Part shown: positions 13,345 through 48,046 of the stretch, one piece after another | Numbering within the stretch: the stretch's first letter is position 1 | How the letters are laid out: each line of letters starts with the position of its first letter | DNA from: a virus | DNA: 64,000 nt | Strand: one strand, 5' to 3' | Virus record (IMG/VR): IMGVR_UViG_3300037010_002844 | Location: 64,001-128,000 of that record | Position numbers and translations under genes: made by a program | Notes under the pieces: generated by a model | Told to the model about the DNA's origin: nothing | Databases searched by the model: none | Seen by the model: the letters and a program-made list of their open reading frames with translations, nothing else

Positions 13345-13345
13345 A

Positions 13346-14414: not shown

Positions 14415-14772
14415 GCGTCGTCTCCTTCTTTTCTAGCAACTGTAGGTCATATCCACTGACAAGTGCACACTTGAGCGTCGGATGCAACGTTACGAATGCG
14501 TCAAACTTCTCCCTAGCATCATCACGCCACCAGCCCTTGACTTCCACGTACACCCGCTTAAAGAGCTCCAACGTCGGTCATTGACGATGGAAGATCATGT
14601 ACGCCTCTCTTGTGAGCTGGATCCTGATCTCCTCCTCGCTGAAGCCCTCGTCCATGCAATGACGCCAGTTGTCATACAGGTCGACGACGCCATTCTTTCC
14701 GTTCCCGTTGCCCGCTGAGTGCAGAAAGTACAAAGGGGCGCTACGATGAGCGGAGCGCGTCCGTACAATCAC
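14383..14772 (-). pseudogene. T7 endonuclease I-like homing endonuclease remnant with an in-frame TGA (intein-5 gap).
   Basis: ORFs 14578..14772 and 14383..14571 are in the same frame and are separated only by TGA 14578-14580. VYVEVKGWWRDDAREKFDAFVTLHPTL resembles T7 endonuclease I FVETKGLWESDDRKKHLLIREQHPEL as I recall it. The upstream PD motif is not preserved. Confidence 0.55.
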
Positions 14773-14856
14773 ATGTTGCGGAGTCGTGGGCCTGTTGCGT
14801 CTCTGTAAGGCGACATGGCCACGGTCGCGGCGAAACCTGCGACCAAAACGCCCGCC

Positions 14857-15333: not shown

Positions 15334-15351
15334 GTCTTTGTAAAGGTACTT

Positions 15352-19570: not shown

Positions 19571-19872
19571 CGCTAATGTCATCGTCAAACTTTGAGGACG
19601 CATTTTCTTTGAGCCAGAAGATGGCGTCAATTGTGCGCTCGTCGGCGTCGGCGTCATCGCACGACGTAGCCCCATAGTATGGGGGCCAAATCGTGCTCAA
19701 ACCCTTTAACGCGCAGTTTGACCTGACAATCTTGAAATTCAGGATTTTCTGCAGCTCTCGTCTGAGCTATTCTTTCCAGGCCAGACACTATCACATCATC
19801 TGCTCGGCAGAATCGCCGTTGTCTGTAAGCTGCACCGCATCAACGTTGCTCGGACACGGTCCCAACTCCAGC

Positions 19873-20610: not shown

Positions 20611-21532
20611 AGTCCCTGTGCTCTAGATTGGCAATCGTATGGTACAAACCTTGTCGACGAAGTTCACCATAGAAGTCATTCATGTACACGACGTCGATGC
20701 GCTGACCAGACGCCACAACGACTTCCCGTGAACGTGCGTTTGAGTTAAGCAACTTTGAGAAACGCGATTTGCCTTCTCGCACACCTTTCAACTCCACGTA
20801 TCGGTCCTCATCACTGAACCAAAAGTCTGGAGTGTAACACTTCTCTTTGCCATCGATGACAACATGGAAAGACCTATGTTCATAGAATGGCATCTTACCG
20901 AGGTGCAAGCAATATCTGTAGTAGTCGGCTTCGAACGAGCTCTTGAAGTACGGGCTGTTTAGGATGTCGGAACGAAAACACGAGCGTCCGTTCACATGTG
21001 AAGCAACCATATCACGTGACTGTGCCTCGCGGGTGCACCGTTTGGAACAGAACCGCGGCACGTAGCTCTTCTTGGTGACGATCGGTTCGCTACAAACTTC
21101 GCATACCAACGTGTGGCGGTCAAACCTCGATGCAGCGAAACATTTGGGTGAACAGAACCTGCGATTGACGTTCTTCGTTGAGAAAGTGCCTAGACACTGT
21201 ACACATGTCAGTGTACGGAGCTCATTCTTTGTCAGCGCTTTCGCAGTGTACTTGTGCCTGCACGCATTCGAACATAGTTTTCTGTTGTTGTGACACTTTG
21301 GAACGTAGAACTCATCGCCGTACTCGACGCACGTCTTCACAAGCCTCGAGGGCATGGGAGCGTGTGACATCAGCTTCCTGTGAGCGACGGCACACTCATC
21401 AGTGCAGTACGGGCGATGGAGCCTACTACCAGAACCCTTGCAGTTGGGCTCATAGTTGAACTGAAACATAATACCACAGTGTTTACACTGTTTCTCAATG
21501 ATGCTCATAGTGGTACGTGTACAGCTCGTCAC
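20567..21532 (-). mobile_element. Free-standing homing-endonuclease gene in the intein-2 gap (four CxxC...FCSxxC zinc modules plus a T7 endonuclease I-like PD-(D/E)XK domain).
   Basis: The repeats are CKHCG...RPYCTDEC, CVEYG...RKLCSNAC, CVQCL...RRFCSPKC and CEVCS...PRFCSKRC. The C-terminal KCYTPDFWFSDEDRYVELKGVREGKSRFSKL matches the T7 endo I YTPDF...FVETKG core as recalled. Confidence 0.7.
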
Positions 21533-21992
21533 TCGTCGACAGCTCAGATGTATACTTCTTCACAGGTTGTCCATCAGGACCCACTGTCAACCACACATGA
21601 TTTTCAGAACACGTGAACGTAGTACCATTCACCTTCACGCGGTACGTCTTCTCATGTTTTGTGGTCATGGTGAACGTAACTTTACGGTGTGAGCCATCCT
21701 GTGAGACAACGCTGTCACCGACTTTCACGTCTCGAAGCGCGGACGACGAACCATCTGACATCAATACCTTTGTGTCTGGCGACAGACACCTGTGAACGCT
21801 AAGGAATCGCGCGAAAGGCAGGTCCCAGAACAACGGGTCCAAGTCGGTGATGTATAGGACGTAGGCGACCAGAGAGCCACCGCCCGAATTGTGGACTGCA
21901 ATACCTTCCACGTTGTAAGTGTGGCTGTTTTCCACACACAGGTCTACGACCTCACCCTTATACGGTACGACAGTCTTACTTCTGAGCTTCAT
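21495..21992 (-). CDS. dnaE: DnaE fragment 2: C-intein 1, 33-aa extein, N-intein 2.
   Basis: C-intein 1 at 21888-21992 is [35 protein letters not shown]. The extein at 21789-21887 is [33 protein letters not shown], matching the DnaE GSAAGSLVAY..ITDIDP..FERFLNPER region. N-intein 2 at 21498-21788 is [13 protein letters not shown]...CSENHVW. Confidence 0.85.
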
Positions 21993-22076
21993 GATATGCG
22001 TTCGCTCTCTTCATGTAAGCCTTGAGATCCCTGTCTAATAGACATTTGACGAGGATCAGGTAAACTTAGTTGAGTT

Positions 22077-23762
22077 TCATTCAACCTCGATTAGGTCATC
22101 ATCTTCAGTCAAGTGTTGTGCTTCAATCCACCCACGATTCTTCGTCAGAAACTTATGCTCCTTGGTGCACCTGATCTTCTTACCGTCATCAAACTCGAGT
22201 TCTAGCAGCTCCTCATCAACCTGATACCTGAAGATCTGAGTCACCATCTGATCAACACCATATGCATCCTTGATAACGTCGCCCACCTTGATGGTGCCAA
22301 TGGGAGCATGCATGCCGTCAGCCATTAGAACCCGCGTCTCAGGAACGAAACAACCGCGGGCTGGGCCGGTAAGGCACACATTGCGTGCCAGCTCCATGAT
22401 CTTCTGGTAGGAAATGAAGTAGTCAGAGTTTTTCATCACCTTAATGACGCCGAGTTCCTCCTTGAGGCGCGCGATATACTCTGGCTTGTCTTGAAGACCA
22501 CGCTTCACCATGCCCACCTTACAAAGCGAGATGAGGTGATTGAACGAGGTCGTGCCTTCGGGCACCAACAACCTCGTCGGAAACTTGGGCGAACGATCGG
22601 GTGGAATCTCCCCGATGACACTGTGTGCGATATCGTGAGTCCGCTCAATGGCGTCACAGACGACTTCATCGTCATACCAGTCGGTGCCTTCCTTGGAGCG
22701 CTGGTACTCATCCCACATCTGTTGGGCGTTCTTCGGATAGAGCTCACACTTCAGCTCATCCTTCGACTTCGGAATCGCGTCAGGATTGATCTCCTGGTAG
22801 TTCATCCAACCCAGGCGCTTGTAGAGCTCACGGTCCTTCCAACGATCGGGATTATAGTAGTGAGCATCGCCGGTGACGATCAGCTGCTTGTTGAGCCCAT
22901 TGCGACGAGCGAACTCCAGGATCGCGCGGTTGACGAGGTTCTGCGCCGGTAGGCGATTGAACTGCAGCTCGAGGAAGTAGTTTCCTTCGCCGACTGCATC
23001 GACCATGTGCTGGTAGGTATTGCCCACCGCGACAACGCATTTCTCGAGCAGCACAGGGTCACTGAGCAACCGTGCGTCGAGCTCGTCAAACTTGTACTGT
23101 TGGATTTCCTGGAATATGGAGTACGCCGGCATGCCGCCGATACAAGCGCTGCTGACGATGATGTCGCCGCCTTTGGCTGCCTCTTTGAGGACAGCATGGT
23201 CAATGCGCGGGAACTTGTAGAAGCCCTTCAAGAATCCCTTCGAACATGCTGCGAAGATCGCCAACAGGCCCTTCTGGTTCTTGGGCAGAATGACTAGGTG
23301 ATGCCGTCGGTTGACGGGATTGAAGTGTTTGGTCGATTTGGACTCTTCCTCGTTTTCGACAGTCAAGGCGTTGGACATCTCAATGTCCTCAGTCTCATCA
23401 TTTTCATCGATGGTGGCGATGATCTTGGTCTGCAGCTTTTCCTGCTCCTTAGCAAGCTTGGCCGCAACCCTCCTGTCTCCCTTCGCCTGCTCTGCGAGTT
23501 CGACGTCCTTCTTCCATTGCTCCAGGTCGGGATGGTAGTACGCCTCGACGCCGGGAATGTACTTGAACGACTTTCCCTTATTGGCCTTGGCCCACTCCTC
23601 GACCCACAGTTGAGCGTGGGCATAGGAGTTCATGTTCCCGTGCTCGGTGATGGCATGGCCATCGAGCCCGTTCTCCATGCACCACTTGAAGTGTTCATCG
23701 GGATAGCCCAAACCATCGAAGGGCGCATTACGAGAAGCCCGTGTGGTTGTGCAAACCGACAA
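22077..23762 (-). CDS. dnaE: DnaE fragment 1: PHP and N-terminal half, plus N-intein 1.
   Basis: Contains FDGLGYPDEHFKWCMENGLDGHAITEHGNMNSYAHAQ (PHP) and ends ...CLTGPARG, followed by N-intein 1 at 22080-22352 (CFVPETRVLMADG...CTKEHKFLTKNRGWIEAQHLTEDDDLIEVE*). The track start (TTG 23762) is an artefact. The real N-terminus is in another frame (see 23728..23820). Confidence 0.85.
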   Translation of the reverse strand: MSVCTTTRASRNAPFDGLGYPDEHFKWCMENGLDGHAITEHGNMNSYAHAQLWVEEWAKANKGKSFKYIPGVEAYYHPDLEQWKKDVELAEQAKGDRRVAAKLAKEQEKLQTKIIATIDENDETEDIEMSNALTVENEEESKSTKHFNPVNRRHHLVILPKNQKGLLAIFAACSKGFLKGFYKFPRIDHAVLKEAAKGGDIIVSSACIGGMPAYSIFQEIQQYKFDELDARLLSDPVLLEKCVVAVGNTYQHMVDAVGEGNYFLELQFNRLPAQNLVNRAILEFARRNGLNKQLIVTGDAHYYNPDRWKDRELYKRLGWMNYQEINPDAIPKSKDELKCELYPKNAQQMWDEYQRSKEGTDWYDDEVVCDAIERTHDIAHSVIGEIPPDRSPKFPTRLLVPEGTTSFNHLISLCKVGMVKRGLQDKPEYIARLKEELGVIKVMKNSDYFISYQKIMELARNVCLTGPARGCFVPETRVLMADGMHAPIGTIKVGDVIKDAYGVDQMVTQIFRYQVDEELLELEFDDGKKIRCTKEHKFLTKNRGWIEAQHLTEDDDLIEVE

Positions 23763-32635: not shown

Positions 32636-33427
32636 TCAGGATACAACGGGCGGTGGCTCGTTTACACGGAGGCGTTTCACCATGTCATCAAAGATCGTTG
32701 GGTCACTTTCGACCAACGCGAACCTACGACCGAGCTTTCGCGCCGCGAAGCCCGTGACGCCTGAGCCCGCGAAGGGATCGATGATCCACTCGCCTGGGTC
32801 TGTGTGAACCTCAATCATGACCTCGTGAAGGCGTTGAACCTTCTCCGTCGGGTGGACCTTGCCCCGCATCAATTCTGTGATGTCAGTCCAGACGTTGGAG
32901 CGTCGATAGAACTCGCTTTTGGCCGGATACTTCGCATTGTAGCCCGCATAACCACGCTTCTCATCCAAGAGAGGCACATGGAACTTTCTAGGCTTCTTCA
33001 TGGGACCCTTGACGAAGTAAGCAAGCTCCTCGCGAGTAAAAAGGTAGTTCCACTGCACGCCGTAGGCACGGCGCTTCTTCCAGGTGATCAGGTTCGCCAG
33101 CTCAAATTGGTCCTTGATCTCCACGTCGCACAGGTAGCGCATGAACGGCCTGAAGCTCGGCTGCCCAATGCCACCCCAGACGTAGAACGCGCCCCCATCG
33201 TGAAGTGCGTGGGTCGTCCAACGCAGCGTCCAATCGATCATCCACGATGCAAATGCCTTATCGGATTGTTGAACGCGGTCCCACTTTTCACGGACCACGT
33301 TTCCGTATGGCGGATCCGCAATGATCAAACCGACCTTCCCGGTGGCCTCGACCGTCGCCAGGACGGTCACGAGGTCGGTACAGTCGGCTTGAATTGCTAG
33401 GCCGTCCGTGAACTTTTCGATTTTCAT
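32636..33427 (-). CDS. DNA methyltransferase (N6-adenine type, DPPY).
   Basis: GLIIADPPYGNV and IIDPFAGSGVTGFAARKLGRRF. Confidence 0.85.
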   Translation of the reverse strand: MKIEKFTDGLAIQADCTDLVTVLATVEATGKVGLIIADPPYGNVVREKWDRVQQSDKAFASWMIDWTLRWTTHALHDGGAFYVWGGIGQPSFRPFMRYLCDVEIKDQFELANLITWKKRRAYGVQWNYLFTREELAYFVKGPMKKPRKFHVPLLDEKRGYAGYNAKYPAKSEFYRRSNVWTDITELMRGKVHPTEKVQRLHEVMIEVHTDPGEWIIDPFAGSGVTGFAARKLGRRFALVESDPTIFDDMVKRLRVNEPPPVVS

Positions 33428-33681
33428 TTCATGATCCTCAATGTCTCTCTAATCTCGAACCGGGCCACCTCACGGCCGGCCTCGTAAGCATGGTCCAACA
33501 TGTGACAGATGACGTCCGCCGCAAGATCATGACGATCCTTATCGTCGTTCAGGCACTTGATAGCCCATTCGTTGTTGTGTTGTTGCAGATGAACGCTCGA
33601 ACCGTGCTGACTCAGTCCTGGGCCTTGGAAGACGTGCTGCTTCCCCGAGGCCGTGTGACTGTGCCTGAAGGTGTAGCTCAC
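33424..33681 (-). CDS. Hypothetical protein.
   Basis: 85-aa ORF overlapping both neighbours by 4 nt. Confidence 0.45.
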   Translation of the reverse strand: MSYTFRHSHTASGKQHVFQGPGLSQHGSSVHLQQHNNEWAIKCLNDDKDRHDLAADVICHMLDHAYEAGREVARFEIRETLRIMK

Positions 33682-34526
33682 GGGACGTTGATGACCGTCT
33701 GAAGCTGCGGTTGGTAGTATTCAGCGCCGCCCACGTGAACAAACATGTTGTTCGTAATCTGCAGATCTGCTTTCCCGTGGGTGTGACCCGCGAAGACCTC
33801 AAAGCGAACCTTCGGGTAGGCCTGCGCGGCCTGCCTCAACATGTCGCCCATCATCTTCGACGTGTACCAAGGCTGGTGCGCCGCGTCGCCCTTCTGCCCC
33901 TCGAAGATATGCGATTCCTCGAAAGGTGGGAAGTGCGTTGCCACCAGGATGACCGTGTGGTAGCGAGCAGCTGCCTTGATGCCGTTCATCACGTGGGTCA
34001 CCCCCTCGTGAGCCAACTTCCGCGAGACCGAGATGATCTTGCTATAGTTGGGTGAACGGCCGCCGTACATCGACGCTGCGCCCATCGCGCCCTCGCTGAC
34101 GAAGTCACCGATCCGGTGCCAGTCCATCATGATGAACCGCGAGTTTCGAGCATCGCCGTAGAGGGCATCGTACCATCCATCGTGGCCCACCAATGCCGTC
34201 GCCGGCGAGAGCGCCACGTAAGGCGTGGTCGGCAGGTATCGCAGAAACTGCGACATATTGCTGACATCCTTCATCTCCTTGCGGACTGTCTCGGTAGTGC
34301 CACCGTAGTAATCGTGATTGCCCAAAACGTAGTAAACCGGACGGCCGACGACCTTCTCCACGGCCGACAAGTGATACGTCAGATCACGAGCGATCGAGAT
34401 GTCACCCGTCAGGAGGACGGCGTCAGGATTGTCCTTGATCAGCGCCTGGCCAAAAGCCACAAGAGCCCCCGGTCTTTCAGCGATGAAATCAAGGTGAACG
34501 TCAGTGGCCCATGCAAGCTTCGGCAT
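33678..34526 (-). CDS. Calcineurin-like metallophosphoesterase.
   Basis: WATDVHLDF, LLTGDIS, VLGNHDYY and GHTHG motifs appear in the canonical order. Confidence 0.8.
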   Translation of the reverse strand: MPKLAWATDVHLDFIAERPGALVAFGQALIKDNPDAVLLTGDISIARDLTYHLSAVEKVVGRPVYYVLGNHDYYGGTTETVRKEMKDVSNMSQFLRYLPTTPYVALSPATALVGHDGWYDALYGDARNSRFIMMDWHRIGDFVSEGAMGAASMYGGRSPNYSKIISVSRKLAHEGVTHVMNGIKAAARYHTVILVATHFPPFEESHIFEGQKGDAAHQPWYTSKMMGDMLRQAAQAYPKVRFEVFAGHTHGKADLQITNNMFVHVGGAEYYQPQLQTVINVP

Positions 34527-34558
34527 GATCTTATTTTACTTCAAAGTGGGTTGTTGGA

Positions 34559-35104
34559 TCAGAGCTTGAAGCGACAGACATTGGCCACGTACTGTCGCAC
34601 GTCGTCGAACGTCTTTCCGTTCCCGTAACGTCTGCACAGGTGCGTCAGATACTGCGGGTACTTGCCGTTCTCCCACTTCTCCGCGTTCCAGGCGATGGCC
34701 CGATCAAGTTCCTCGAGGTCAGCCACGAGCAACAGCGAATAGTCAGCCGACTCGCAGACGTACTGCGCGACGGGGCCGGGGAGCAGTGCAAGCATCGACA
34801 GGTAGCAATCGCGGTAGTGCCGCGCATCGAACATGTAACACTCGTCGATGAATTGTTGGTCAGGGTCGCCAGTGTGCCCCGTCTTCAACCAACGTTCTGT
34901 GACGAGAGCTTGATCAGCCAACGTGCAGTAGATTCGAATGTCTGCGAACTTGACCTTGTGCTGGTAGACCATAATGGTCGACGTCCACGGTTGCGTCCCG
35001 TCAGTGTACCACGAGCCATTGCACCGCGGCACGGGATACCGCAGCGCGGCTCCGATGAACCGGGCCACATCGTTGAGGTTGGGTTCCTGCTTGTTCTTCA
35101 TCAC
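34559..35104 (-). CDS. Hypothetical protein.
   Basis: 181-aa ORF. No motif recognised. Confidence 0.5.
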   Translation of the reverse strand: MMKNKQEPNLNDVARFIGAALRYPVPRCNGSWYTDGTQPWTSTIMVYQHKVKFADIRIYCTLADQALVTERWLKTGHTGDPDQQFIDECYMFDARHYRDCYLSMLALLPGPVAQYVCESADYSLLLVADLEELDRAIAWNAEKWENGKYPQYLTHLCRRYGNGKTFDDVRQYVANVCRFKL

Positions 35105-35988
35105 GTGTCGCTCCTGAACATGTGCTCCAGCGCACCTGGAATCAGGCCGTTCTGCAAGATGGGTCTGTCGTGCCAGTGTTCGTCTTGCCCCGCGATGTGG
35201 CTGACGAAGTCGTCACGCACGAACTTGTAGCGGCCCTTCACGATACCGTCCTTCTCCCACTTGACGTAGAGGCCCTCCATCGTGGGACCGACGTAGTACT
35301 TCTTTCGCAGCTCTTCACATCTGGCGATCCACTCGTCCTGCTGGAACACGTAGTGTCCCCTCTTACCCAGGACGTTACACACAACAACAGCATCGTACCA
35401 CGAAGACTCGCACGACAGCAACGAGTCGTTGTGACGTGACTTTCCCTCGCTCACAAACGCAGACGGGCCGATCATAGACTTCAGCTCTTCGACGCCCGAC
35501 ACAAGGCCAGTTGCGATCACCCGCACAGGCACGATCCTGACGGGTGCAGACGTGCGTCTCAGCAACTCGTCACGGGCGGGTGTCGACAGGAACGTGTCGG
35601 TCTCCCTGTCGAAGACGTCGAACTCCATGAAGTAGTGTGGTAGCCTGTCGTACCAGATCGTGTGACAGGCGAACATCCACTCACCGTACATCACGTAGCG
35701 TTCGCCAAGCATCTCGTACAAACCCATCTCATGTGTCGCTGCCCACTGTTTCAACAGTTCGAACTGCTTTTCACGGGGACCTCCATGAAGGTAGTGCCCA
35801 CGCGACTGTAGCTTCATCTCACCGTCGACGAAGGAAATGCCGACGTTAGCACCGTCGATCTTCTCCTCGATGAGGAGGTGTTTGCCGGCGAGCTCCTCCC
35901 ACGGGACGGCCTCGAGGTCGTCGTCCCCATGTTGGAACCGCGAACCACGAATGTGTCTTGTGCGCGGGAACTTTTTCATCTCGCTCAT
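35101..35988 (-). CDS. ATP-dependent RNA ligase (Rnl2/Rnl5-like nucleotidyltransferase).
   Basis: KFPRTRHIRGS, then motif I LLIEEKIDGANVGISF (KxDG), then YVMYGEW. Confidence 0.75.
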   Translation of the reverse strand: MSEMKKFPRTRHIRGSRFQHGDDDLEAVPWEELAGKHLLIEEKIDGANVGISFVDGEMKLQSRGHYLHGGPREKQFELLKQWAATHEMGLYEMLGERYVMYGEWMFACHTIWYDRLPHYFMEFDVFDRETDTFLSTPARDELLRRTSAPVRIVPVRVIATGLVSGVEELKSMIGPSAFVSEGKSRHNDSLLSCESSWYDAVVVCNVLGKRGHYVFQQDEWIARCEELRKKYYVGPTMEGLYVKWEKDGIVKGRYKFVRDDFVSHIAGQDEHWHDRPILQNGLIPGALEHMFRSDT

Positions 35989-36269
35989 AGCTTCACCAGA
36001 TGTTTCTGTTCGTATCCGTAGCGCAGGCCGCTGGATTGCAAGCGAACGTCAACGAAGTCTTTCGCATCCTCATACGTAAAGTCACCGACGATGCCAAGAC
36101 ACTCGCCGAACTCATCTACGCGTGAGGTCGAGCAGGAAATGCAGCCCTCGTCGGGCAGCTCTGAATCGGCAGGACCTCGAAGTCCCTTGTGATTTCACGG
36201 AGTGCACTGCCCACGAAGAATCACCTTGAACTCCTCGGTCATCTTGACCTGGTCACCGCACTTCAACAT
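35985..36269 (-). pseudogene. Small ORF interrupted by an in-frame TGA, translationally coupled to the RNA ligase gene.
   Basis: MLKCGDQVKMTEEFKVILRGQCTP-TGA(36197-36195)-NHKGLRGPADSELPDEGCISCSTSRVDEFGECLGIVGDFTYEDAKDFVDVRLQSSGLRYGYEQKHLVKL*. Its stop overlaps the ligase ATG (ATGA). I checked the frame by coordinate arithmetic. Confidence 0.35.
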
Positions 36270-36299
36270 GTTACAATTCTATTCCACTGAATCGTGAAG

Positions 36300-36599
36300 T
36301 TACATACCCGCGCACTCTTTTGCCCAACGTAGTTCATCCTCGAGGAATGCCACGCGTTGAGCATCCTCAAACTGCCGGAGCTTCTGCCGATAGGCATTGC
36401 GTGTCGCCTCGGCATTTCGATAGCGAAAGCGATTCTTTGCCAGCCTCTCGGAGACGTCGATCGTCTGGACGTGGGTGATCTCGAACTCGTGGATCTCCGG
36501 CCAGGGTCCCTAGTCGTCACAGGTGCTCGCAGCCATTCCAAGGTGACGCTTGTATTCTTGCTCTGTCGTATAGAGCCAAGCGCGCTTGTGATCAGACAT
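36300..36599 (-). pseudogene. Small ORF interrupted by an in-frame TAG.
   Basis: MSDHKRAWLYTTEQEYKRHLGMAASTCDD-TAG(36512-36510)-GPWPEIHEFEITHVQTIDVSERLAKNRFRYRNAEATRNAYRQKLRQFEDAQRVAFLEDELRWAKECAGM*. Confidence 0.35.
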
Positions 36600-36727
36600 C
36601 CACGCGAGGCCGCCACCCGACCAGGAACTGCGTGCTTCCTACACGTATTGTCCCTAGCAGAAGATCGCGAAGAGCCTCATCCTCGATTTCACTTGTAGGG
36701 ATCGTAGCCGCTGCCGTAGCACGTGGT

Positions 36728-37057
36728 CTACGAGCTACCGAGACCCAGGTCGACGCTGACCTGCAGTTGTGCATTACCCAACTGTCTGACCTCGAAAAAG
36801 AAAAAGTTCTTCTTGTCCCTGGCCGCACGTAGGACCCACTCACCGAGCGTTTCCTTGTCAGGGAAGGCAAAGTAGTGAATGTCAGGCACCGTCGACGATG
36901 AATCGCTATCGTGAGAATCGTAGGCCGGCATCCACTCCGTCCGGGTGTCGAACAGGACGGCAGCGAAATGCGGACCCTTGGGCTTCTTCTCAGGACGATC
37001 GACCATGAACTGCGTCCAGTCGTGGTAGTTGTAATCGTCCATGTACTTCTTCGGCAT
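36728..37057 (-). CDS. Hypothetical protein.
   Basis: 109-aa ORF starting MPKKYMDDYNYHDW. Confidence 0.5.
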   Translation of the reverse strand: MPKKYMDDYNYHDWTQFMVDRPEKKPKGPHFAAVLFDTRTEWMPAYDSHDSDSSSTVPDIHYFAFPDKETLGEWVLRAARDKKNFFFFEVRQLGNAQLQVSVDLGLGSS

Positions 37058-37064
37058 GGCATCC

Positions 37065-37289
37065 TCAGCAGGGGTTGTCGCGGTAATGCTTCACAATGGT
37101 GAGGATCTCATCGACCTCATCGTCTCCGCAGTCCTTGTAGCTCTTCCCCTTCGTTGACTTGATGCGTTCCCAGAGGTGAGCATAAGAGTTACGCTTCGCG
37201 AGTCCGGGATGAAGCGGAAGCTTCCCGTCGAGGTGGGCTCCCGCCTCCTTCACGGCTTCCTGGATGCGCTTGCAGTTTTCAGGACTCAT
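37065..37289 (-). CDS. Hypothetical protein.
   Basis: 74-aa ORF. Confidence 0.5.
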   Translation of the reverse strand: MSPENCKRIQEAVKEAGAHLDGKLPLHPGLAKRNSYAHLWERIKSTKGKSYKDCGDDEVDEILTIVKHYRDNPC

Positions 37290-37674
37290 CGATGTCGCCA
37301 GTCTTCAAGCGAAGCAAGTCGTTCTTCGAGATCTCGAACTTTTGCCGCCAACAATTTGGTGCAAGTTGATCCACAGTGACCGGCGCCGGTTTCGTGATCA
37401 GCGTGAAGGTTGTCAGTGTAGCGAGGAAACCCGCAAAATCAGTGAGAGTCGGAAAGGAAAGACTCAGTGGAACAAAGGCATGCGCGGTCTGACATACAAT
37501 TTTAGCGAAGAAGATCGACAGAAAGCACGTGAACAACGCATTACTTTCAGCAAGTTACGGCCCATGTTAGGAAAACGACACAGCGATAAAACTCGCGCAA
37601 AGATGCGAAAATCTCATCGCTGTTCGAAGTACGGTGAACCCAGCCACCAGAAGATGACCCGTAAATCCTCCTAG
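37264..37674 (+). pseudogene. NUMOD3-only remnant of a free-standing homing endonuclease.
   Basis: CSEETRKISESRKGKTQWNKG and GKRHSDKTRAKMRKSH are NUMOD3-type DNA-binding repeats. No nuclease domain is present. It is on the plus strand and converges on pnkp. Confidence 0.5.
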
Positions 37675-38675
37675 AACGCACCTGGGGCTACTTGAAAACA
37701 GGTCAGGCCGATGCTGCGCCAGAAGTCGACGACCTGATTGCGATCATCGAGGACGAAGTCCACGTGGTACTTACCGGCCACGAACTTGTCGAACAGCTCC
37801 TGCTTGATGACGGCGTCCTTGCGCTGGTCGAGCTTTCCCGGATCGGGCGCAGTCTCGCCACGCATGTGCAGCTCGTACGGGATAGGCATGGTCGCAGATG
37901 TCTCCACCATGTCCTGCGTGAATGCTGGGTTGGCGACGCGGCAGTACTTCTCAATGAAGCGCTGCGTCTCGGGACGGTACTTCTGGTCGCGGCCCGACAT
38001 GAACATGATCTTGTAGCCCTGAGCGTGCATCGCCAGGACTGTTCGGATCACCGGCCAATTGGGCTTGTCGATCTCGTCGCAGTTCGACGCATCGTATGGC
38101 GTGCGGTTGCCGATGATGGCCAACGTCCCATCGAGGTCACACATGATCGCCTTCGGCAGGCTCTCGTCCTGGATGATGACTCGGAACGAGTCCGGCCGCG
38201 GTTCGTAGTAGCACTCCTTGTCGGAGAGCTTGCGCCCCTTGTCGAGGCCAGCGCCACGGGCCATGTCAAGGATGATCTTCTCACCCACATGAGCGAACCC
38301 GGTGCGCTGTGCATCGCGAGCGATGCAGGTCTTGACATCAACATTGACACCCTTCTCGATGACCTTGACGTCGCCATAGCTCGCAGCCGCAGCGTGCAGC
38401 TTCTTGACGGTCATCGGCACCAGGTGCGTGTCATCCAGGATGACATCGTAACCCGCGTCGAAGGCCTGACGCATCAGCGCTTCCTTCATTGAGCGAACAA
38501 GGTCCTCACGAGAGTTGTCACGAGCGTGTGGGTTGTTGCCAGGGCCCACGCACATGCCGCGCAAATCATCGCGGTTGATGCGCACCCAACGCTTGGGCTC
38601 GCGCTTCACCAGCGCCGCGGCTTCGGTCGACTTACCGGAACCCGGCAGGCCCTTGAAAATCACGAGAGTACGCAT
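37671..38675 (-). CDS. pnkp: Polynucleotide kinase-phosphatase (T4 PseT-like).
   Basis: N-terminal P-loop VIFKGLPGSGKST. C-terminal HAD phosphatase motif IMCDLDGTLA. Confidence 0.85.
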   Translation of the reverse strand: MRTLVIFKGLPGSGKSTEAAALVKREPKRWVRINRDDLRGMCVGPGNNPHARDNSREDLVRSMKEALMRQAFDAGYDVILDDTHLVPMTVKKLHAAAASYGDVKVIEKGVNVDVKTCIARDAQRTGFAHVGEKIILDMARGAGLDKGRKLSDKECYYEPRPDSFRVIIQDESLPKAIMCDLDGTLAIIGNRTPYDASNCDEIDKPNWPVIRTVLAMHAQGYKIMFMSGRDQKYRPETQRFIEKYCRVANPAFTQDMVETSATMPIPYELHMRGETAPDPGKLDQRKDAVIKQELFDKFVAGKYHVDFVLDDRNQVVDFWRSIGLTCFQVAPGAF

Positions 38676-38714
38676 ACCTTGACTCTATTCTCTGTGATGG
38701 TTGTTTTGCACAAC

Positions 38715-38746
38715 ATCAATGCGGGCCGTCTCTGACCCGCATTGAT
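38715..38746. terminator. Perfect 11-bp inverted repeat between the nucleotidyltransferase and pnkp genes.
   Basis: ATCAATGCGGG-ccgtctctga-CCCGCATTGAT. A second small hairpin (GTTGT-gcaaa-ACAAC) is adjacent. No clear U-tract. Confidence 0.4.
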
Positions 38747-38761
38747 TCGCTGCGTTTGTTG

Positions 38762-39718
38762 TCAGCCGTGGAGCGTCAGGTACCGCTCCGTCATCGACAC
38801 CACGAATTTGTCGATGAGCTTACGGTCGGGCTCTCGACGCAGGGTTGAGGTCTCATAGAGCTCGTTGGCACGTTTCTCCAGTGCATCGGCACGCTCAATC
38901 AGGGCATCGTAGTCGTGCTCGCCCCGGCGATACGCCAGGATCTCTTCGCGGTCGCCACGTTCCTGACGGTCCACGTAGACCTTATGGTCTTCGAGGATTT
39001 CAACGGCCATGGTCTTGAGGCGAATCAGGTGCATGCCATGTTTCACGTCAAAACCCCACTTGGCCTCAAGCTCGGCACGAGCTGGGTTCCGAGTCTTGAG
39101 CCAGTTGACGTACTGGTCGTAGTGCGTCTTCGCAGCCTGATACTGCTTCTCCCGCGTGAACAGGGTCAGCACGTCCTTGGGCAGGTCCAGCTCAATCCCG
39201 TCGGCGACTGCCGCATCGTAGGCACCCAACTCCGACTTCGAGACCTTGCTCGTCTCGGAAAGTCCGAATGACTTCCTCGAAGGAGCTTCCTTGGGCGGGT
39301 TGAGCAACCACGAGCGATGCGTCTTGATGCGCTGCAGCTGGGCATGGGCATAGCCCGAGAAGGTGAACTTCGCCTTCTTGGACAAGAACTCGTCCTTGAT
39401 GCTGCGCAACTCTTCGCCGAACTCGTCGATCTTCAACACGTGCCTGTCGGCCACGTGGAGGATCTCGATGATGTTCGGGTTGCAGTCGGCAGCGAGCCTA
39501 GCAAACTTGTTGAGGGCATAGGTTACCGAGTCGACGCCGTCGCTCTTGGAACCCATGTGTTCCGCCTGCTCGAACGTCTTCATGAAGCCCAAGTAGTACT
39601 CCTTGGGAGCGATGGCAACGCCCTTGAAGTCCTCGTCAGAGGTGGCGACGTTCAGGCCATAGGCGTGAGAACCGTGCCGAACGTAGAGGATTGTGCGCTT
39701 TTTGACGTCAAAGTCCAT
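38762..39718 (-). CDS. Pol-beta-fold nucleotidyltransferase of the RNA-repair-associated (RlaP-like) family.
   Basis: ILYVRHGSHAYGLNVATSDEDFKGV (GS...D.D signature). It sits next to pnkp and the RNA ligase. Confidence 0.65.
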   Translation of the reverse strand: MDFDVKKRTILYVRHGSHAYGLNVATSDEDFKGVAIAPKEYYLGFMKTFEQAEHMGSKSDGVDSVTYALNKFARLAADCNPNIIEILHVADRHVLKIDEFGEELRSIKDEFLSKKAKFTFSGYAHAQLQRIKTHRSWLLNPPKEAPSRKSFGLSETSKVSKSELGAYDAAVADGIELDLPKDVLTLFTREKQYQAAKTHYDQYVNWLKTRNPARAELEAKWGFDVKHGMHLIRLKTMAVEILEDHKVYVDRQERGDREEILAYRRGEHDYDALIERADALEKRANELYETSTLRREPDRKLIDKFVVSMTERYLTLHG

Positions 39719-39810
39719 GTCTTCACCTCCCGTAAGGGTACTTTCATCCTACCCCAACGAGTAACGATTGTGCACAGGCACTCGCGGGCCCGAAAGGCCT
39801 ACTTATAGTC

Positions 39811-40080
39811 ATGTCGAAATCCACCCTCGCGCTACTTCGTGAGTTCATCAGCGAAATCATGCTGAGCGAGGCGCCTGTCAACCTGCAGGTCCCCAAGGAC
39901 AAGAAGCAGGCCGACGCATTCATCGACATGTTGCTATGGGCAGGCGAGAAGATGCAGGCCACTCAGGAAGAGGTCGACACTGCCGTCGAAAAGGCCAAAG
40001 ACAAAAACGACTGGTCTGACGCGCTTGACTTGATCTCAACCTACTTTGTGATGAAGGGCATCAAGTTCAAGCGTCAGTGA
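39811..40080 (+). CDS. Hypothetical small protein with the leader motif.
   Basis: MSKSTLALLREFISEIML. 89 aa, plus strand. Confidence 0.5.
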   Translation: MSKSTLALLREFISEIMLSEAPVNLQVPKDKKQADAFIDMLLWAGEKMQATQEEVDTAVEKAKDKNDWSDALDLISTYFVMKGIKFKRQ

Positions 40081-40528
40081 CTTCGACGCGAATGTTCTCG
40101 ACCTGCATCACCACCTCAGTGATAACGGGAGACGGGTCGCCGTAGTCAAGAAACTGCGGTGTGGCGTGCAGTGGCTTGACTGTCATGGTCCATACTTCAG
40201 TCGCGCTGCCGGCGGCATTGATGAACTTGAAGACGGCTTGGCGCGACTTCTTCTCTTGACACCACTCCTGAAACTGTGAGTAGATCGATTGCCCTTCGAT
40301 CTCGTAAAACTGCGCTGTCAAGAATGACTGGCGGTCTGCTGCGGCCCAAAGCATCGGCAGCTGAGCGCTCTTAACGAGGAACGTGTCCAGACCTTCGATT
40401 GCAAGGACCCATCGATTTCTGCGCTGCGGGCGAAACTTCTCATCCTCTGGCTTGACTTCGATGACTCGAGCCTGAGGTTTGGGTGACCAGAAGGTCCGCT
40501 TGAAAAATTCGAGAAATTGAGAGAGCAT
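40067..40528 (-). CDS. Hypothetical protein.
   Basis: 153-aa ORF. Confidence 0.5.
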   Translation of the reverse strand: MLSQFLEFFKRTFWSPKPQARVIEVKPEDEKFRPQRRNRWVLAIEGLDTFLVKSAQLPMLWAAADRQSFLTAQFYEIEGQSIYSQFQEWCQEKKSRQAVFKFINAAGSATEVWTMTVKPLHATPQFLDYGDPSPVITEVVMQVENIRVEVTDA

Positions 40529-40543
40529 GATAAACCGTATCAG

Positions 40544-40930
40544 TCAATAGCCATTTTCGATGCGCTCCACGTTGGTGCGACCCTTTTCGAGGTAAGCCTC
40601 GAACAGTTCATCCAATGTGATACCTGAGGCGATGACGAGCTCGAGGTAGAGATGCAGAGCATCGACTAGCTCTTCTTTGTATTCCTCGCGGTCCACGTGA
40701 GGAAGTTCAGTCGCCCGGTGTGACTTTGCATTCTTGAGATGCTGCCCGGCCTCAAACAGTTCCTCCATGATGTGATTGCGAATGTCCTTCAGGAACTTCT
40801 GCCCTTGCTTCGACGTAATGTCAGTCGGGAAGTCCGGGAAACCGCGCTTCTTCTGCAGGAGCCTCATGAACGACTCCTGTTGGTCCCAAAGCATCTGCAA
40901 ACGATCGGTCATCCGTACACCCTCACGCAT
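40544..40930 (-). CDS. All-alpha NTP pyrophosphohydrolase (dimeric dUTPase/dCTPase, MazG-like superfamily).
   Basis: IMEELFEAGQHLK...EEYKEELVDALHLYLELVIASG...YLEKGRTNVERIENGY matches the dimeric-dUTPase pattern EE..E...E.vDalHf......K...N..R...GY. Confidence 0.6.
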   Translation of the reverse strand: MREGVRMTDRLQMLWDQQESFMRLLQKKRGFPDFPTDITSKQGQKFLKDIRNHIMEELFEAGQHLKNAKSHRATELPHVDREEYKEELVDALHLYLELVIASGITLDELFEAYLEKGRTNVERIENGY

Positions 40931-40936
40931 TCGCGC

Positions 40937-40967
40937 ATCGTGTTATCGTGTTATCGTGTTATCGTGG
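40937..40967. repeat. Tandem 8-bp repeat ATCGTGTT, about 3.9 copies.
   Basis: Read directly: atcgtgtt atcgtgtt atcgtgtt atcgtgg. It spans the 3' end of ORF 40951..41319 and the region 7-37 nt upstream of the next gene's start. Confidence 0.9.
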
Positions 40968-41319
40968 ATCTCGAGCACCTTTGGGATGCTACCATCCTTC
41001 TCAGTCTGATAGCCGCCTGCGAGGTCCAGGCCACTGGAGTGCGACTTTTGGCTAGGTCATCGAAGACCATTGCGTCTCGGAGTCGCAACTGTTCCGTTGT
41101 CATCCACCCGCCATACGGGTCATTGATGTGTGGATCAGCGCCGGCCTGGAACAGGACGATGTCAGTGTAACTCATCCAGTCGAGGACGTCACTGAGCTCT
41201 CGGAAGAGATCATTGACCTGACTGTGATGCATGTAGCGTTGGCCGGCCGTGAAGTGTTGAATCCAAGAACCGGCGTTGAGGCGCTTGATGATCTCGGGAT
41301 CACTCATCGGGTAGGTCAT
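40951..41319 (-). pseudogene. C-terminal fragment of an HDAC/acetylpolyamine-amidohydrolase-fold protein, with an apparent frameshift.
   Basis: DIVLFQAGADPHINDPYGGWMTTEQLRLRD matches the deacetylase pattern aGfDah.gDplG.l.lt. The expected GGY motif appears only in another frame (GLDLAGGYQTEKDGSIPKVLEIH). The N-terminal catalytic half is absent. Confidence 0.35.
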
Positions 41320-44404: not shown

Positions 44405-47400
44405 TCACCCGCATTTGCTGTTTCCGCAGTTCATGCAAGTAACGCATCCCTGCTGATAGGCGAGCGACGTCGAGGCACAGATCGGGCAACACTTTTCCTG
44501 CGTTGCCTTGGTCCCATCCACGATGTAGTGCTTGCTCAACGTTCGCGCGATAACCGTCGAGAACGAGAACAGATCGCTGTGCTTGTCCTTGCGGAGCTGC
44601 TCGACGACAAGGTGAACTGGTACTCCATGTCGAAGTGTCATCGACAAGGTTCGAGTGTGCGCTCCGTACAACGGATTGTCGAAGAGGTTGACAATGTCCT
44701 TATAGAGAAGGAAATTGTCGTCCAGGTCGACGCGGAGGTTGTACGTGGACACCCCGTCAGCGTTCTTGCCGTTCTTGATGAGGACGCCCTTCTTGGCCTT
44801 CCTCGGGACTTCAACCTGTTCTGACAGTCCGGCGAACAGCTCGTAAGGCTTGCCGTTCATGAGGCCCACGAAGACCAGGTACTTCTCACCCTTGATCGAA
44901 ACGTGGTGAATGTCACACTCCAGCTCCTTCGGACGCTTCAGAGAGTGAGACTCGGCGATATTCTTGGGTTGGTCCGCCGCTGTCTTCTTCTCGTCCTTGA
45001 TGAGGACGCCATCACGAGAACCATCTCGATAGATGGTGACGCCCTTGCAACCAGTCTCCCAACCGCGCATGTAGATCTGCTTCACCACATCGACCGGCGT
45101 GTCACTCGGAATGTTGGTGGTGTTCGAGATGGAGTGACAGACCCACTTCTGAGCTGCGGCCTGGACGTCGATCTTCTTGACCCAGTCGATGTCATTCGAC
45201 GTGGCACCGAAGTAAGGCGACTTTTCCACGTCGGTCTCACCAGTGACGTCCATCCACTTCTTGAATCCGTGGTGATAGACCGTGTACTCCTGCCACTTGT
45301 CGCCCATGGCGTCAACGAAGTCGACACGAGCATCCAAGTCATTCGGATTGATCTTCTTCCTTCGCTTGTAGCTCAGGAGGAAGGCGGGCTCGCAGCCAGA
45401 TGTAGTCTGGGTCAAGATGGAGACAGAGCCAGCTGGCGCTGTCGTCGTCAAGGCGATGTTGCGACGTCCATAGAGACGATACTGATCACGGAGCTCATGA
45501 TCAGCGTCCATCACTTGTTCAATGAAAGGATGTCCCTCTTCCACCTTGTGGGAAAAAATCGGGAAGGGACCACGATCACGTGCCATCTCAACAGTCGAGC
45601 GGTAGGCACCCAACGCGAGGCCCTTATAGATCTGCTCAGTGACGTTGATAGACTCGTCCGAACCGTACTTGATGTTGAGGTAGGCCAAGGCATCGCCCAA
45701 GGCAGTGATGCCCAAGCCGGTGCGACGACCATTGATTGCAGTGTTGCGGATCTTGGTCCATAGCTCGATTTCGGGCCGCTTCACGTCAGCGGGCTCAGGG
45801 TCATTCTCGATCTTCTGCATGATTCGATCAATGGCCTCGAGCTCCAGGTCGACGAGATCGTCCATCAACTTCTGCGCCTTCTTAACAACATCGTTGAAGC
45901 GCACGAAGTCAAAACTGGCGTGAGGAGTAAATGGATCTCTGACGAAGCGAGCGAGGTTGACGAGAAGCAAACGACATGAATCGTAAGGCGACAGCGTAAT
46001 CTCACCGCATTGTTCGCTAGCGATTATTACGTTTGCTTGATTTTGGAACTGTACAAGCTTTTCGTCACCAACATACATGCACAGTGTGTGCTCTCCGTCG
46101 ACAGTGCCGTTGTACACGTCTTCGACACCCGCGGGTTCAACGCTGATCACGCGGTGATTGTGCAATGCCGCGGCCTCTTTCAGGGCAGACCAGGACGCAA
46201 AACCGTTTTTGGTACCGATTCGTGCCGGCACATCCAAGCGTCGACATTCGGCAACCCACTCTCTTCCCAAGGGCTCTCTACCCAACGTAAACCTAAGTGA
46301 GGTAAAGGCGTCAAGTTGCTGTTTTCGCGTTACTTCTGCACGATCAGCGTGAAGCTTCTTCAGGTTCTCTGCCCGTGCAACGTTCTTATTGGCCTTCCTG
46401 TTTGCGTAGAGGTTGGAACACGAATGTGAGCAGAATGCCTGTTCACGTCGGCAGTACGGCAGCGCGAACATTTCGTTGCACCACTCACACGTCCGGTTGA
46501 CGTACAGCTCACCGTCGATCACATCGACATCATAACCTTCTTCAAGGGCCTGAACGTACGTACGTTGAATCCTCGTGTCGAGTTCTGGTGTTGAGATGTC
46601 GACCTCTCGAGCCGCCCAGCACGACAGGTCGTAGAAGCTTCCCAGCTCGCTGCGACGCCAGGCCGAAAACGACATCGGCAGCGACCGTTGTTTAGCGTAA
46701 GCGTACCACTCGTTCAGTGAAACGCGGCGGCCGAGCGACCGGGTCAACCCCAGCACGTGTTGGCGGATGTCATCATTGGTGACGTTGTCATAGGCACGCG
46801 GATTGTTGGCCCCACCGACGCTCTCGCTCATCTTCGCCGAATATTCAGCAAACTTGCCAGCGACTTTATGAGCAACCCAAAGTTGATCGCCATTCAACAG
46901 CTCGTCGACTCGCTTCCGGGATCCGTCACGCATGATCATCGTGTGGTTTCCGGTGGCCTTAAAAGTGTGACCTCCCTCAATGGTCACCTTGAACACAGGA
47001 ACTCCCTTACCGGTAAGCCTAGGATTCCTCATCAGGCGGATGCCAATTTTTCCTGTGGCCTCCTGGTAACAATAGACCGGCAAGTCCTTGCCTTCGTCAG
47101 CTAGCTGCTTGATGGGCACGTAACCCCTTCCGTCAGCGACGGCGATAAGAGTTTCTCCCGTAATGCACGGGTTGGTGCTCGTCGAGCCGTAACCAAACGC
47201 AGCGTAGGCATCTGCTGGCCCGCGGCGCAGGACAGTGTCCCAGAACAGCAAACCGGGTTCAGCAGATTCCCATGCTGCCTGGATGATCTCATGCCACAGT
47301 TGGCGAGCGTCTACCTGTTCCTCGACGATGTGAGGAACGTCTTTGTCAACTGGAAACCGCAGTTGAACCTGCGTACCCGCCTTAACGGCGTTCATGAACT

Positions 47401-48046
47401 CGTCTGTCAAACGAATCGATATGTTGGCGCCCGTGACCTTCTTCTTGTTCTTCTTGATGTTGATGAAGGTGCGAATCTCCGGGTGGTGCACCGACACTGT
47501 CAACATCAGCGCGCCTCGGCGGCCGCCTTGGGCCACCTCGCGACAGGTATTACTGTAGCGCTCCATGAAGATGCCCAGGCCATCGGTGGTGCGGGCAGCG
47601 TTGGCAGTCTCGATACCCTTCGGGCGAATCGTCGAGATGTCAAAACCCACGCCGCCGCGACGCTTCATGATCTGCGCCTGTTCCTGGTCAGTCTTTAGGA
47701 TGCCGCCATAGGAATCATAAGGGCTCTCGATAACGAAGCAGTTGCTCAACGACTGAAACTGGTACGGATTGCCAACTGCCGACATGGGTGATCCCTGTGG
47801 GACCACGTCCCATGAAGAGAAGAGCTCATAGATCTCTTGCTCTGACATGGCGTTCGGATACCGTGTCTCGATGCGAGCAAACTCCCGCGCCTCGCGCCGG
47901 TGCATGTCGTCAGGGGTAGCCTCGTAAATGTTTCCCTTAAGATCCTGCAGCGCATACTTGCCTGCAAAGACCTCACCCGCCAGCTCATCTCCACGAAAAT
48001 ACTCGATCGACGCATCGCGAACGTGCTGATACGTGAAAGTCCTCAT
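44405..48046 (-). CDS. nrdJ: Class II (adenosylcobalamin-dependent) ribonucleotide reductase NrdJ, interrupted by one contiguous intein.
   Basis: N-terminal YFRGDELAGEVFAGKYALQD; GGVGFDISTIRPKG; the active-site TNP[intein]CGEITL; and a C-terminal CCPICAS...CVTCMNCGNSKCG zinc module. Confidence 0.9.
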   Translation of the reverse strand: MRTFTYQHVRDASIEYFRGDELAGEVFAGKYALQDLKGNIYEATPDDMHRREAREFARIETRYPNAMSEQEIYELFSSWDVVPQGSPMSAVGNPYQFQSLSNCFVIESPYDSYGGILKTDQEQAQIMKRRGGVGFDISTIRPKGIETANAARTTDGLGIFMERYSNTCREVAQGGRRGALMLTVSVHHPEIRTFINIKKNKKKVTGANISIRLTDEFMNAVKAGTQVQLRFPVDKDVPHIVEEQVDARQLWHEIIQAAWESAEPGLLFWDTVLRRGPADAYAAFGYGSTSTNPCITGETLIAVADGRGYVPIKQLADEGKDLPVYCYQEATGKIGIRLMRNPRLTGKGVPVFKVTIEGGHTFKATGNHTMIMRDGSRKRVDELLNGDQLWVAHKVAGKFAEYSAKMSESVGGANNPRAYDNVTNDDIRQHVLGLTRSLGRRVSLNEWYAYAKQRSLPMSFSAWRRSELGSFYDLSCWAAREVDISTPELDTRIQRTYVQALEEGYDVDVIDGELYVNRTCEWCNEMFALPYCRREQAFCSHSCSNLYANRKANKNVARAENLKKLHADRAEVTRKQQLDAFTSLRFTLGREPLGREWVAECRRLDVPARIGTKNGFASWSALKEAAALHNHRVISVEPAGVEDVYNGTVDGEHTLCMYVGDEKLVQFQNQANVIIASEQCGEITLSPYDSCRLLLVNLARFVRDPFTPHASFDFVRFNDVVKKAQKLMDDLVDLELEAIDRIMQKIENDPEPADVKRPEIELWTKIRNTAINGRRTGLGITALGDALAYLNIKYGSDESINVTEQIYKGLALGAYRSTVEMARDRGPFPIFSHKVEEGHPFIEQVMDADHELRDQYRLYGRRNIALTTTAPAGSVSILTQTTSGCEPAFLLSYKRRKKINPNDLDARVDFVDAMGDKWQEYTVYHHGFKKWMDVTGETDVEKSPYFGATSNDIDWVKKIDVQAAAQKWVCHSISNTTNIPSDTPVDVVKQIYMRGWETGCKGVTIYRDGSRDGVLIKDEKKTAADQPKNIAESHSLKRPKELECDIHHVSIKGEKYLVFVGLMNGKPYELFAGLSEQVEVPRKAKKGVLIKNGKNADGVSTYNLRVDLDDNFLLYKDIVNLFDNPLYGAHTRTLSMTLRHGVPVHLVVEQLRKDKHSDLFSFSTVIARTLSKHYIVDGTKATQEKCCPICASTSLAYQQGCVTCMNCGNSKCG
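46010..47167 (-). mobile_element. 386-aa intein in the NrdJ TNPCGE active-site motif.
   Basis: Residues 294-679. Starts CITGETLIAVADG, has block B GNHTM, and ends ANVIIASEQ followed by +1 Cys. Internal modules are two homing-endonuclease-associated-repeat-like segments (LGRRVSLNEWYAYAKQRSLPMSFSAWRR; LGREPLGREWVAECRRLDVPARIGTKNGFASWSALKEAA) and one CxxC...FCSxxC zinc module. I saw no LAGLIDADG, HNH or GIY-YIG motif. Confidence 0.8.

Follow-up and report, generated by a model that had tools for sequence, protein, structure and literature searches.

The window analysed here, a 64,000-nucleotide stretch of viral DNA (positions 64,001 to 128,000 of IMG/VR virus record IMGVR_UViG_3300037010_002844), encodes an RNA ligase-like protein, a T4-type polynucleotide kinase/phosphatase (Pnkp) and a nucleotidyltransferase of the RlaP family. 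All three genes lie on the minus strand between positions 35101 and 39718, as a preliminary description of this DNA had claimed. By its sequence, the ligase is placed in the LIG family that accompanies HD-Pnk and includes Runella LIG and Deinococcus DRB0100 (LigB). We rate at somewhat better than an even chance the reading that these genes form a cassette with which a large phage repairs RNA breaks, as an anti-defence against host ribotoxins such as anticodon nucleases; the RNA-repair theme of the preliminary description is kept as the most likely one.

Cassettes that heal, fill and seal broken ends are an established form of phage counter-defence, and the module is known as a class. The variant described here—a LIG-type ligase with T4-type Pnkp, RlaP and a metallophosphoesterase—is conserved across a lineage of large uncultured phages, and may already be listed in Burroughs & Aravind 2016.

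Identity of the ligase, Pnkp and RlaP

Profile searches, the means of classification suggested in the preliminary description, place the ligase (295 amino acids (aa); 35101-35988) in PF09414 RNA_ligase (E=2.4e-30, 106 bits, cutoff 27), within the covalent nucleotidyltransferase/ATP-dependent RNA ligase superfamily. The nucleotidyltransferase (318 aa; 38762-39718), earlier described as a Pol-beta-fold enzyme of the RNA-repair type, belongs to PF10127, RlaP (2.5e-18, 67 bits, cutoff 23), and matches phrog_388 over its full length (1.8e-62). The 334-aa product of 37671-38675 matches AAA_33 (2.9e-17), HAD_PNKP (3.8e-44) and phrog_505 (1.3e-77). Profile scores of all three proteins exceed the curated cutoffs. 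The RlaP gene is upstream of the ligase gene on the same strand, at a distance of 2.8 kb.

Motifs I, III, IIIa, IV and V of the ligase are intact and invariant among 32 family members, and the nucleotidyltransferase fold is present. The KxDG motif noted earlier is found as K43-I-D45-G46, with K, D and G invariant in the 32 sequences, and K43 is the predicted AMP-accepting lysine. Among solved structures there is no significant direct sequence match (one is at chance level, E 0.44), and the family profile yields a marginal match only, to NgrRnl; this alignment places motif I on the KLDG of NgrRnl and begins at residue 158 of its 340. The fold is nearest to those of Rnl5 and Rnl2, with lower similarity to Rnl1.

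The ligase consists of the adenylyltransferase domain only. Because only about 36 residues precede motif I, there is no N-terminal OB-like domain of the Rnl5 kind, which DraRnl and NgrRnl need for nick sealing; because about 37 residues follow motif V, there is neither the C-terminal helical domain that gives Rnl1 its tRNA specificity nor the C-terminal domain that Rnl2 needs for 5'-adenylylation of the nick. The analogy with T4 Rnl1 drawn in the preliminary description therefore does not hold: the protein is not Rnl1-like, and probably belongs with the domain-only, HD-Pnk-associated LIG proteins. Comparison by hhalign with DRB0100 gives a probability of 96.5% (E 1e-9, N-terminal half only), whereas comparison with DraRnl gives 2.5%. 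DRB0100 is a short (210 aa) and distant relative, and its K40 occupies the exact position of the motif I lysine in those family members that have no short N-terminal extension. The family is large, with 4074 matches, and has conserved elements of its own: an N-terminal PRTxHxxGSxxQxxDxD and a C-terminal HWHDRPIxQN. Residues 183-212, between motifs IIIa and IV, form a variable low-confidence insert common to the ligase and its closest relatives; the insert is absent from most family members, including all bacterial ones, and explains the length beyond the approximately 210-270 aa of the family.

Pnkp is colinear from end to end with T4 Pnkp (1ltq, 4.6e-28), and its best match among solved structures is Capnocytophaga Pnkp1 (4xrp_A, 2.5e-44). 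Its kinase elements comprise the P-loop GLPGSGKST (G9-x4-GKS17) and NRDDLR with D36 and R39, and its phosphatase elements DLDGT, SGR and LDDR align with the T4 residues. The bifunctional kinase/HAD-phosphatase named earlier is thus borne out, and, as judged from its motifs and domains, the protein is confirmed as a T4-type polynucleotide 5'-kinase/3'-phosphatase.

The signature of RlaP (G16-S17 and D28/D30/D63) is conserved without exception when the protein is aligned with its phage relatives and T4 NrdC.11. The RlaP family is named, according to papers citing Burroughs & Aravind 2016, for its association with RNA ligase genes. An ATP-dependent ligase, a PNK-HAD protein and RlaP are a common RNA-repair set of jumbo phages, whose most prevalent nucleotidyltransferase is RlaP, with a distribution that mirrors that of RNA ligases and a predicted role in replacing nucleotides that were removed where the RNA broke (PMC7824862). 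In a December 2025 preprint, two RlaPs from Pseudomonas extend the 3'-OH of RNA, and not of DNA, by one or two nucleoside monophosphates (NMPs); given a mimic of cleaved tRNA, they favour the 3' end of its 5' half, and they increase the aminoacylation of repaired tRNA that had lost one nucleotide (PMC12776372). The same account proposes that RlaPs replace what RloC-type nucleases have cut out, counts T4 NrdC.11 as a member of the family, and considers the 3'-OH product to suit 5'-PO4 ligases better than RtcB (PMC12776372). By analogy, the RlaP of the window is predicted to add one or two NMPs to an RNA 3'-OH. Repair of CCA or of tRNA 3' ends, which the preliminary description had offered as its role, does not fit these enzymes, as those characterised extend the 3'-OH of the 5' fragment of the cleaved tRNA mimic. 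Nor does the set amount to a new three-enzyme variant: because it has already been described for jumbo phages (PMC7824862) and T4 has an RlaP in NrdC.11 (PMC12776372), a ligase with Pnkp and RlaP is the standard expectation.

The unusual component is the ligase and not the nucleotidyltransferase, as seen from the GenBank phage collection, in which Pnkp matches at least 2000 records, RlaP 659, and the ligase 3. All three ligase matches are in uncultured huge phages, with identities of 31% or less.

Gene order in phages and bacteria

Relatives of the ligase were gathered from 33 phage loci, 31 of them with upstream sequence; as the loci are related by descent, counts among them are not independent. 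A shared order is recognizable—Tmk, orf86, MazG-like, RlaP, Pnkp, variable small open reading frames (ORFs), ligase, orf180 or nothing, metallophosphoesterase and DNA methylase—and it is found on one strand in about 20 contigs of up to 369 kb, with ligase identities of 44-69%. The gene linkage claimed for this genome thus extends beyond it. Within 10 kb of the ligase, T4-type Pnkp is encoded in 26 of the 31 loci and RlaP in 20. In distant phages (35-36% ligase identity) in which other synteny is lost, Pnkp is still about 1 kb upstream of the ligase.

Among the five loci that have no T4-type Pnkp, L021 and L031 have HD-Pnk beside the ligase, and L018 has a different metallophosphoesterase after it. 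Locus L005, with a ligase 59% identical to that of the window, has no Pnkp or RlaP near the ligase, and encodes a Tpt1/KptA RNA 2'-phosphotransferase 5.5 kb upstream (3899-4450), which recalls the Tpt1-LIG-HD-Pnk cluster of Runella; neither the window nor any other of the loci was found to have a Tpt1. The ligase of distant huge phages stands beside HD-Pnk, TyrRS, NAPRTase or an EF-Ts homologue (L031, 8498-14404; L028-L033, about 11400-12700; L018, 8683-9282). Of the ORFs of about 410 aa in L028-L033, that of L031 alone is confirmed as TyrRS; the L028 ORF was scanned and has no Pfam match. The surroundings in these distant phages are translation and NAD genes, unlike the nucleotide-metabolism block of the window.

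Bacterial relatives are numerous. Among species-representative genomes, at least 589 ligase relatives were confirmed, among the 600 pattern matches listed, from Myxococcota, Planctomycetota, Actinomycetota, Chloroflexota, Cyanobacteria, Bacteroidota, Firmicutes and Alphaproteobacteria. In 80 bacterial loci the proteins are 44-51% identical to the phage ligase, and in 72 of the 77 with enough sequence an HD-Pnk gene is immediately downstream and co-oriented, encoding a protein of about 380 aa that begins with an HD domain and ends in a P-loop kinase. Neither T4-type Pnkp nor RlaP was found near the ligase in the bacterial loci. The pairing of LIG with HD-Pnk is the one that Shuman's laboratory reported from Runella slithyformis. 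In a rough neighbour-joining tree the phage clade of the window branches next to the bacterial group rather than within it, and DRB0100 falls far outside.

The window's cassette resembles the LIG-HD-Pnk operon in family membership, in its domain-only ligase and in the position of the catalytic lysine (the Runella protein being likened by description, not by sequence), but differs in having a T4-type kinase-HAD Pnkp, RlaP and metallophosphoesterase nearby. No HD-Pnk is present anywhere in the window; the ORF at 54622-55209 (minus) encodes a stand-alone HD protein of 195 aa that has no kinase domain, beside a family-A DNA polymerase fragment.

Neighbouring genes and genome context

Downstream of the ligase, orf180 (34559-35101, minus) begins at the last base of the ligase stop codon, its ATG overlapping that stop (TGATG), with an AGGAG 9 nucleotides (nt) upstream. 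It has 39 metagenomic relatives with no domain annotation and a confident structure model (pLDDT 89.7), and no structural neighbour in PDB or BFVD and no profile match to PDB sequences were found for it; no structural match in PDB or BFVD backs a reading of orf180 as the missing accessory domain of the ligase or as a divergent HD domain. In several relatives orf180 is missing and the phosphoesterase directly follows the ligase, and orf180 is a lineage-specific insert between the two.

The next gene, 32 nt beyond orf180, encodes a calcineurin-like metallophosphoesterase of 282 aa (33678-34526, minus; Metallophos 1.3e-10, phrog_1649 1.2e-16, TIGR03729 5.9e-13), the translation of which shows the metal-binding motifs DVH, GD, GNHD and GHTH. 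It has no PDB sequence match and only one phage match, and it directly follows the ligase or orf180 in about 20 related loci. Because it sits where bacteria have the HD phosphoesterase domain, it may be a further healing activity; the healing phosphoesterase of bacterial Pnkp, in the Pnkp-Hen1 system, belongs to the same calcineurin-like superfamily. We regard it as a candidate extra end-healing enzyme, its membership in the module being suggested by position only. A small ORF and then an N6/N4 DNA methylase follow, both with 4-nt overlaps, and from orfB (described below) through the DNA methyltransferase all genes are on one strand with overlapping starts and stops or short gaps. A Hen1-type methyltransferase was considered and rejected, the adjoining methylases being DNA N6/N4 methylases.

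Pnkp and the ligase are separated by a variable stretch of 1.7 kb. The preliminary description had listed small interspersed ORFs here, two of them with in-frame stops; these are orf74, orf109, and orfA and orfB with one stop each, and a plus-strand ORF had gone unmentioned. Homologues of orf74 (37065-37289, minus), 49-59% identical to it, occupy the corresponding place in L001, L002, L007, L008, L009 and L014, and orf109 (36728-37057, minus) has homologues of 23-77% identity in the same interval in nine related loci; neither has a family match in profile searches. orfA (36300-36599, minus) is interrupted by a TAG at 36512-36510 (codon 30). In L012 the ORF immediately upstream of the ligase (9715-9981) is an intact homologue with Asn at the stop position, and the similarity runs on past the TAG. 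The Cys/His-rich orfB (35985-36269, minus), with a C..H...CxxC pattern, is interrupted by a TGA at 36197-36195 (codon 25), and its terminal stop shares bases with the ATG of the ligase (ATGA). An exhaustive search with the part after the internal stop gave 34 relatives; intact homologues of 92-99 aa match both sides of the stop, with D, Y, T or G at its position, and the closest of them (P0160, 57% identity) has a 4-nt overlap with a 270-aa PF09414 ligase (L121). Because both stops also occur in L034, an independently assembled contig that is 100% identical, and intact homologues exist elsewhere, the stops are real and not assembly errors. From sequence comparison they would be either nonsense mutations, making orfA and orfB recent pseudogenes, or read-through sites.

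Several other explanations for orfB and its stop were rejected. Selenocysteine at the TGA, which reads C-T-P-stop, is not consistent with homologues that have D, Y, T or G there and never Cys, and no SECIS family was matched. Reassignment of stop codons throughout the genome is at odds with long ORFs that read normally in code 11, and the two stops differ in codon. The orfB family is not an obligate partner of the ligase, as a more distant homologue, P0163, is not beside a ligase.

The plus-strand ORF (37264-37674), antisense between Pnkp and orf74, has a NUMOD3 match (2.5e-08) and a TIGR01453 match confined to profile positions 94-160. It is what remains of a GIY-YIG-type homing endonuclease, a DNA-binding tail that has no catalytic domain, and is not a working part of the module; no homologue was found in the related loci. 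The interval from Pnkp to the ligase seems to be a hot spot for insertions, and in relatives it contains DUF7487 and other ORFs.

The DNA of the window belongs to a large uncultured phage: the GenBank phages include no near-identical DNA, which identifies the phage as uncultured, and an identical orf180 protein is found on contigs of up to 309 kb. Its genes include those for ribonucleotide reductase (RNR), DnaE interrupted by inteins, DnaB, RecA, ThyX, Tmk, dUTPase and a 5'-3' exonuclease. The DnaE region (10068-23762, minus) comprises at least seven ORFs, with Pfam matches in the order PHP/pol3_alpha N-terminus, pol3_alpha, finger and HHH_6; between the pieces are Hint/intein segments and unrelated ORFs (15352-17151, minus; 17837-19570, plus), as if several inteins or split inteins had invaded the gene. 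The large RNR subunit (44405-48046, minus; 1213 aa) has an Intein_splicing match at residues 305-653. At 6345-9404, on the plus strand and thus opposite to almost all else, a protein of 1019 aa with leucine-rich-repeat-variant (LRV) repeats is encoded. No Rfam match was found in 33000-41000 at E-values of up to 1. Scans for promoters and terminators gave counts no higher than in shuffled sequence and therefore say nothing on co-transcription.

Proposed function and its alternatives

The pathway we propose would act on broken RNA, presumably tRNA. Pnkp would convert a 5'-OH to a 5'-PO4 and a 2',3'-cyclic or 3'-PO4 to a 3'-OH, with the adjacent metallophosphoesterase possibly serving as a second phosphoesterase; RlaP would then add one or two NMPs to the 3'-OH if the nuclease had trimmed the 3' side of the break, in the manner of the RloC type; and the ligase, adenylylated on K43, would seal the 3'-OH to the 5'-PO4. 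Any role for orf180, orf74 or orf109 in it would be conjectural. In the evolution of the phage lineage, the HD-Pnk partner of LIG would have been replaced by T4-type Pnkp, and RlaP recruited nearby. Support for this reading comes from the profile scores and intact catalytic residues of the three enzymes, from the close packing on one strand, from the gene order kept in related phages and the Pnkp retained in distant ones, from the 72 of 77 bacterial loci in which the ligase has an end-healing partner, from the preference of characterised RlaPs for RNA and for the cleaved-tRNA mimic, and from the distant phage loci that put the ligase beside TyrRS or EF-Ts genes.

The cassette can be compared with several known systems. 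With T4 repair (Pnkp, Rnl1 and NrdC.11) it shares the type of Pnkp, the Asp triad of RlaP and the presumed reversal of host tRNA cleavage, but the tRNA-specificity C-domain of Rnl1 is missing here, and genes that are dispersed in T4 are clustered. The jumbo-phage sets (Burroughs & Aravind 2016; Iyer et al. 2021) have the same three functional classes and the same logic of healing, restoring and sealing; Rnl1 and Rnl2 are named among the ligase families in the jumbo-phage survey, whereas the ligase here is of the LIG type. The RtcB-RlaP-RtcA operon of Pseudomonas (Carruthers et al. 2025 preprint) likewise encodes RlaP with an RNA ligase and is the only RlaP context with biochemistry, although RtcB is a 3'-phosphate ligase and a poor fit to the 3'-OH product of RlaP. 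A ligase that joins 5'-PO4 to 3'-OH has no such conflict, since RlaP leaves a 3'-OH, and the window's ligase would be of this 5'-PO4 kind if it is a classical ligase. In Capnocytophaga, where Pnkp1 is the best structure match to the window's Pnkp, the ligase of the Pnkp1/Rnl/Hen1 system is also a separate polypeptide.

A number of observations weigh against RNA repair. Sealing is the weak link, as joining of RNA has been reported for no member of the LIG family: Runella LIG self-adenylylates and joined none of the RNA or DNA substrates tested (PMC6097658), and DRB0100, also an adenylation domain only, takes AMP on K40 and ligates neither DNA nor RNA (PMC1997131). In Deinococcus, DRB0100 (LigB) heads the DRB0100-PARG-HD-Pnk operon, made up of DRB0100, DRB0099 and DRB0098, which is radiation-induced and tied to DNA-damage resistance (PMC6300522). 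The neighbourhood of the cassette is one of nucleotide and DNA metabolism (ThyX, Tmk, MazG-like, DNA methylases, RNR and DnaE), and the window has no tRNA or tmRNA genes. Conservation of the gene order within the lineage is itself weak evidence of joint function, because the loci share ancestry.

Several of these points would also be expected if the cassette repaired DNA or RNA-DNA junctions, with Pnkp healing DNA ends and the ligase sealing nicks in phage DNA that arise in replication, recombination or host nuclease attack, a reading that we consider unlikely. T4 Pnkp and HD-Pnk act on both DNA and RNA ends, the latter being called a 'DNA/RNA end-healing enzyme' in the title of a cited paper, and the replication and nucleotide-metabolism context of the window is in keeping with this, as are the radiation-induced Deinococcus operon and the radiation sensitivity of HD-Pnk mutants. 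DNA ligase activity of DRB0100 has been claimed once, in a later report that, as cited in PMC6300522, required added PprA and DRB0098. For RNA, the pairing of LIG with HD-Pnk in bacteria and with T4-type Pnkp and the RNA-specific RlaP in phages provides independent contextual evidence. It is comparably improbable, in our estimation, that Pnkp and RlaP serve in RNA repair while the 'ligase' has a special requirement—a 2'-PO4 end or a partner protein—or another acceptor, with a different phage or host ligase doing the sealing. Two independent laboratories saw the enzyme-AMP and no 3'-OH/5'-PO4 joining, the protein has no accessory substrate-binding domain, and small conserved ORFs are translationally coupled to it on both sides; yet orf180 and orfB do not always accompany the ligase, and in the window orfB is interrupted. 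As to the 2'-PO4 end, LIG is clustered with Tpt1 in Runella, and the L005 homologue lies 5.5 kb from its ligase, but Tpt1 is found neither in the window nor in the other loci. T4-type Pnkp and HD-Pnk, moreover, leave 2'-OH/3'-OH ends and not 2'-PO4, and a kinase/phosphoesterase accompanies the ligase almost everywhere, which is in keeping with a classical 3'-OH/5'-PO4 ligase.

The three genes might also be mere neighbours in a conserved early nucleotide-metabolism block, with no common pathway, although we think this very improbable. Synteny in the lineage covers the whole block from Tmk through orf86, MazG-like, RlaP, Pnkp and the ligase to the metallophosphoesterase and methyltransferase, the 2.8 kb from RlaP to the ligase include unrelated ORFs and what is left of a homing endonuclease, and the distant L027, L030 and L032 have Pnkp and no RlaP within 10 kb. 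Simple synteny nevertheless explains the pattern poorly, because the ligase is repeatedly accompanied by an end-healing kinase, though not always one of the same molecular type. In distant phages with no remaining synteny, Pnkp is still no more than about 1 kb away from the ligase, and where Pnkp is absent, in L021, L031 and the bacteria, another kinase/phosphoesterase is at the ligase. The distribution of RlaP in jumbo phages, moreover, mirrors that of RNA ligases (PMC7824862).

RNA repair, our preferred reading, would join two things that have been studied separately, the bacterial LIG-HD-Pnk operon and the phage RlaP/Pnkp toolkit, with end-healing modules swapped around a constant ligase. 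For the LIG ligase no joining substrate has proved reproducible, and whether it is a DNA-repair factor in Deinococcus has been a matter of debate. We suggest, tentatively and as a rather doubtful extension, that the phage lineage displays the natural LIG pathway, in which LIG-type ligases would seal RNA breaks together with an end-healing enzyme and RlaP, perhaps with the help of a small partner such as orf180 or an orfB-type Cys/His protein. If this is true, the phage enzymes would be a handle with which to reveal the LIG substrate, for which two laboratories have found none since 2007; the loci described here provide new, divergent LIG orthologues together with candidate partners, and thus a direct experimental route to the substrate of the ligase.

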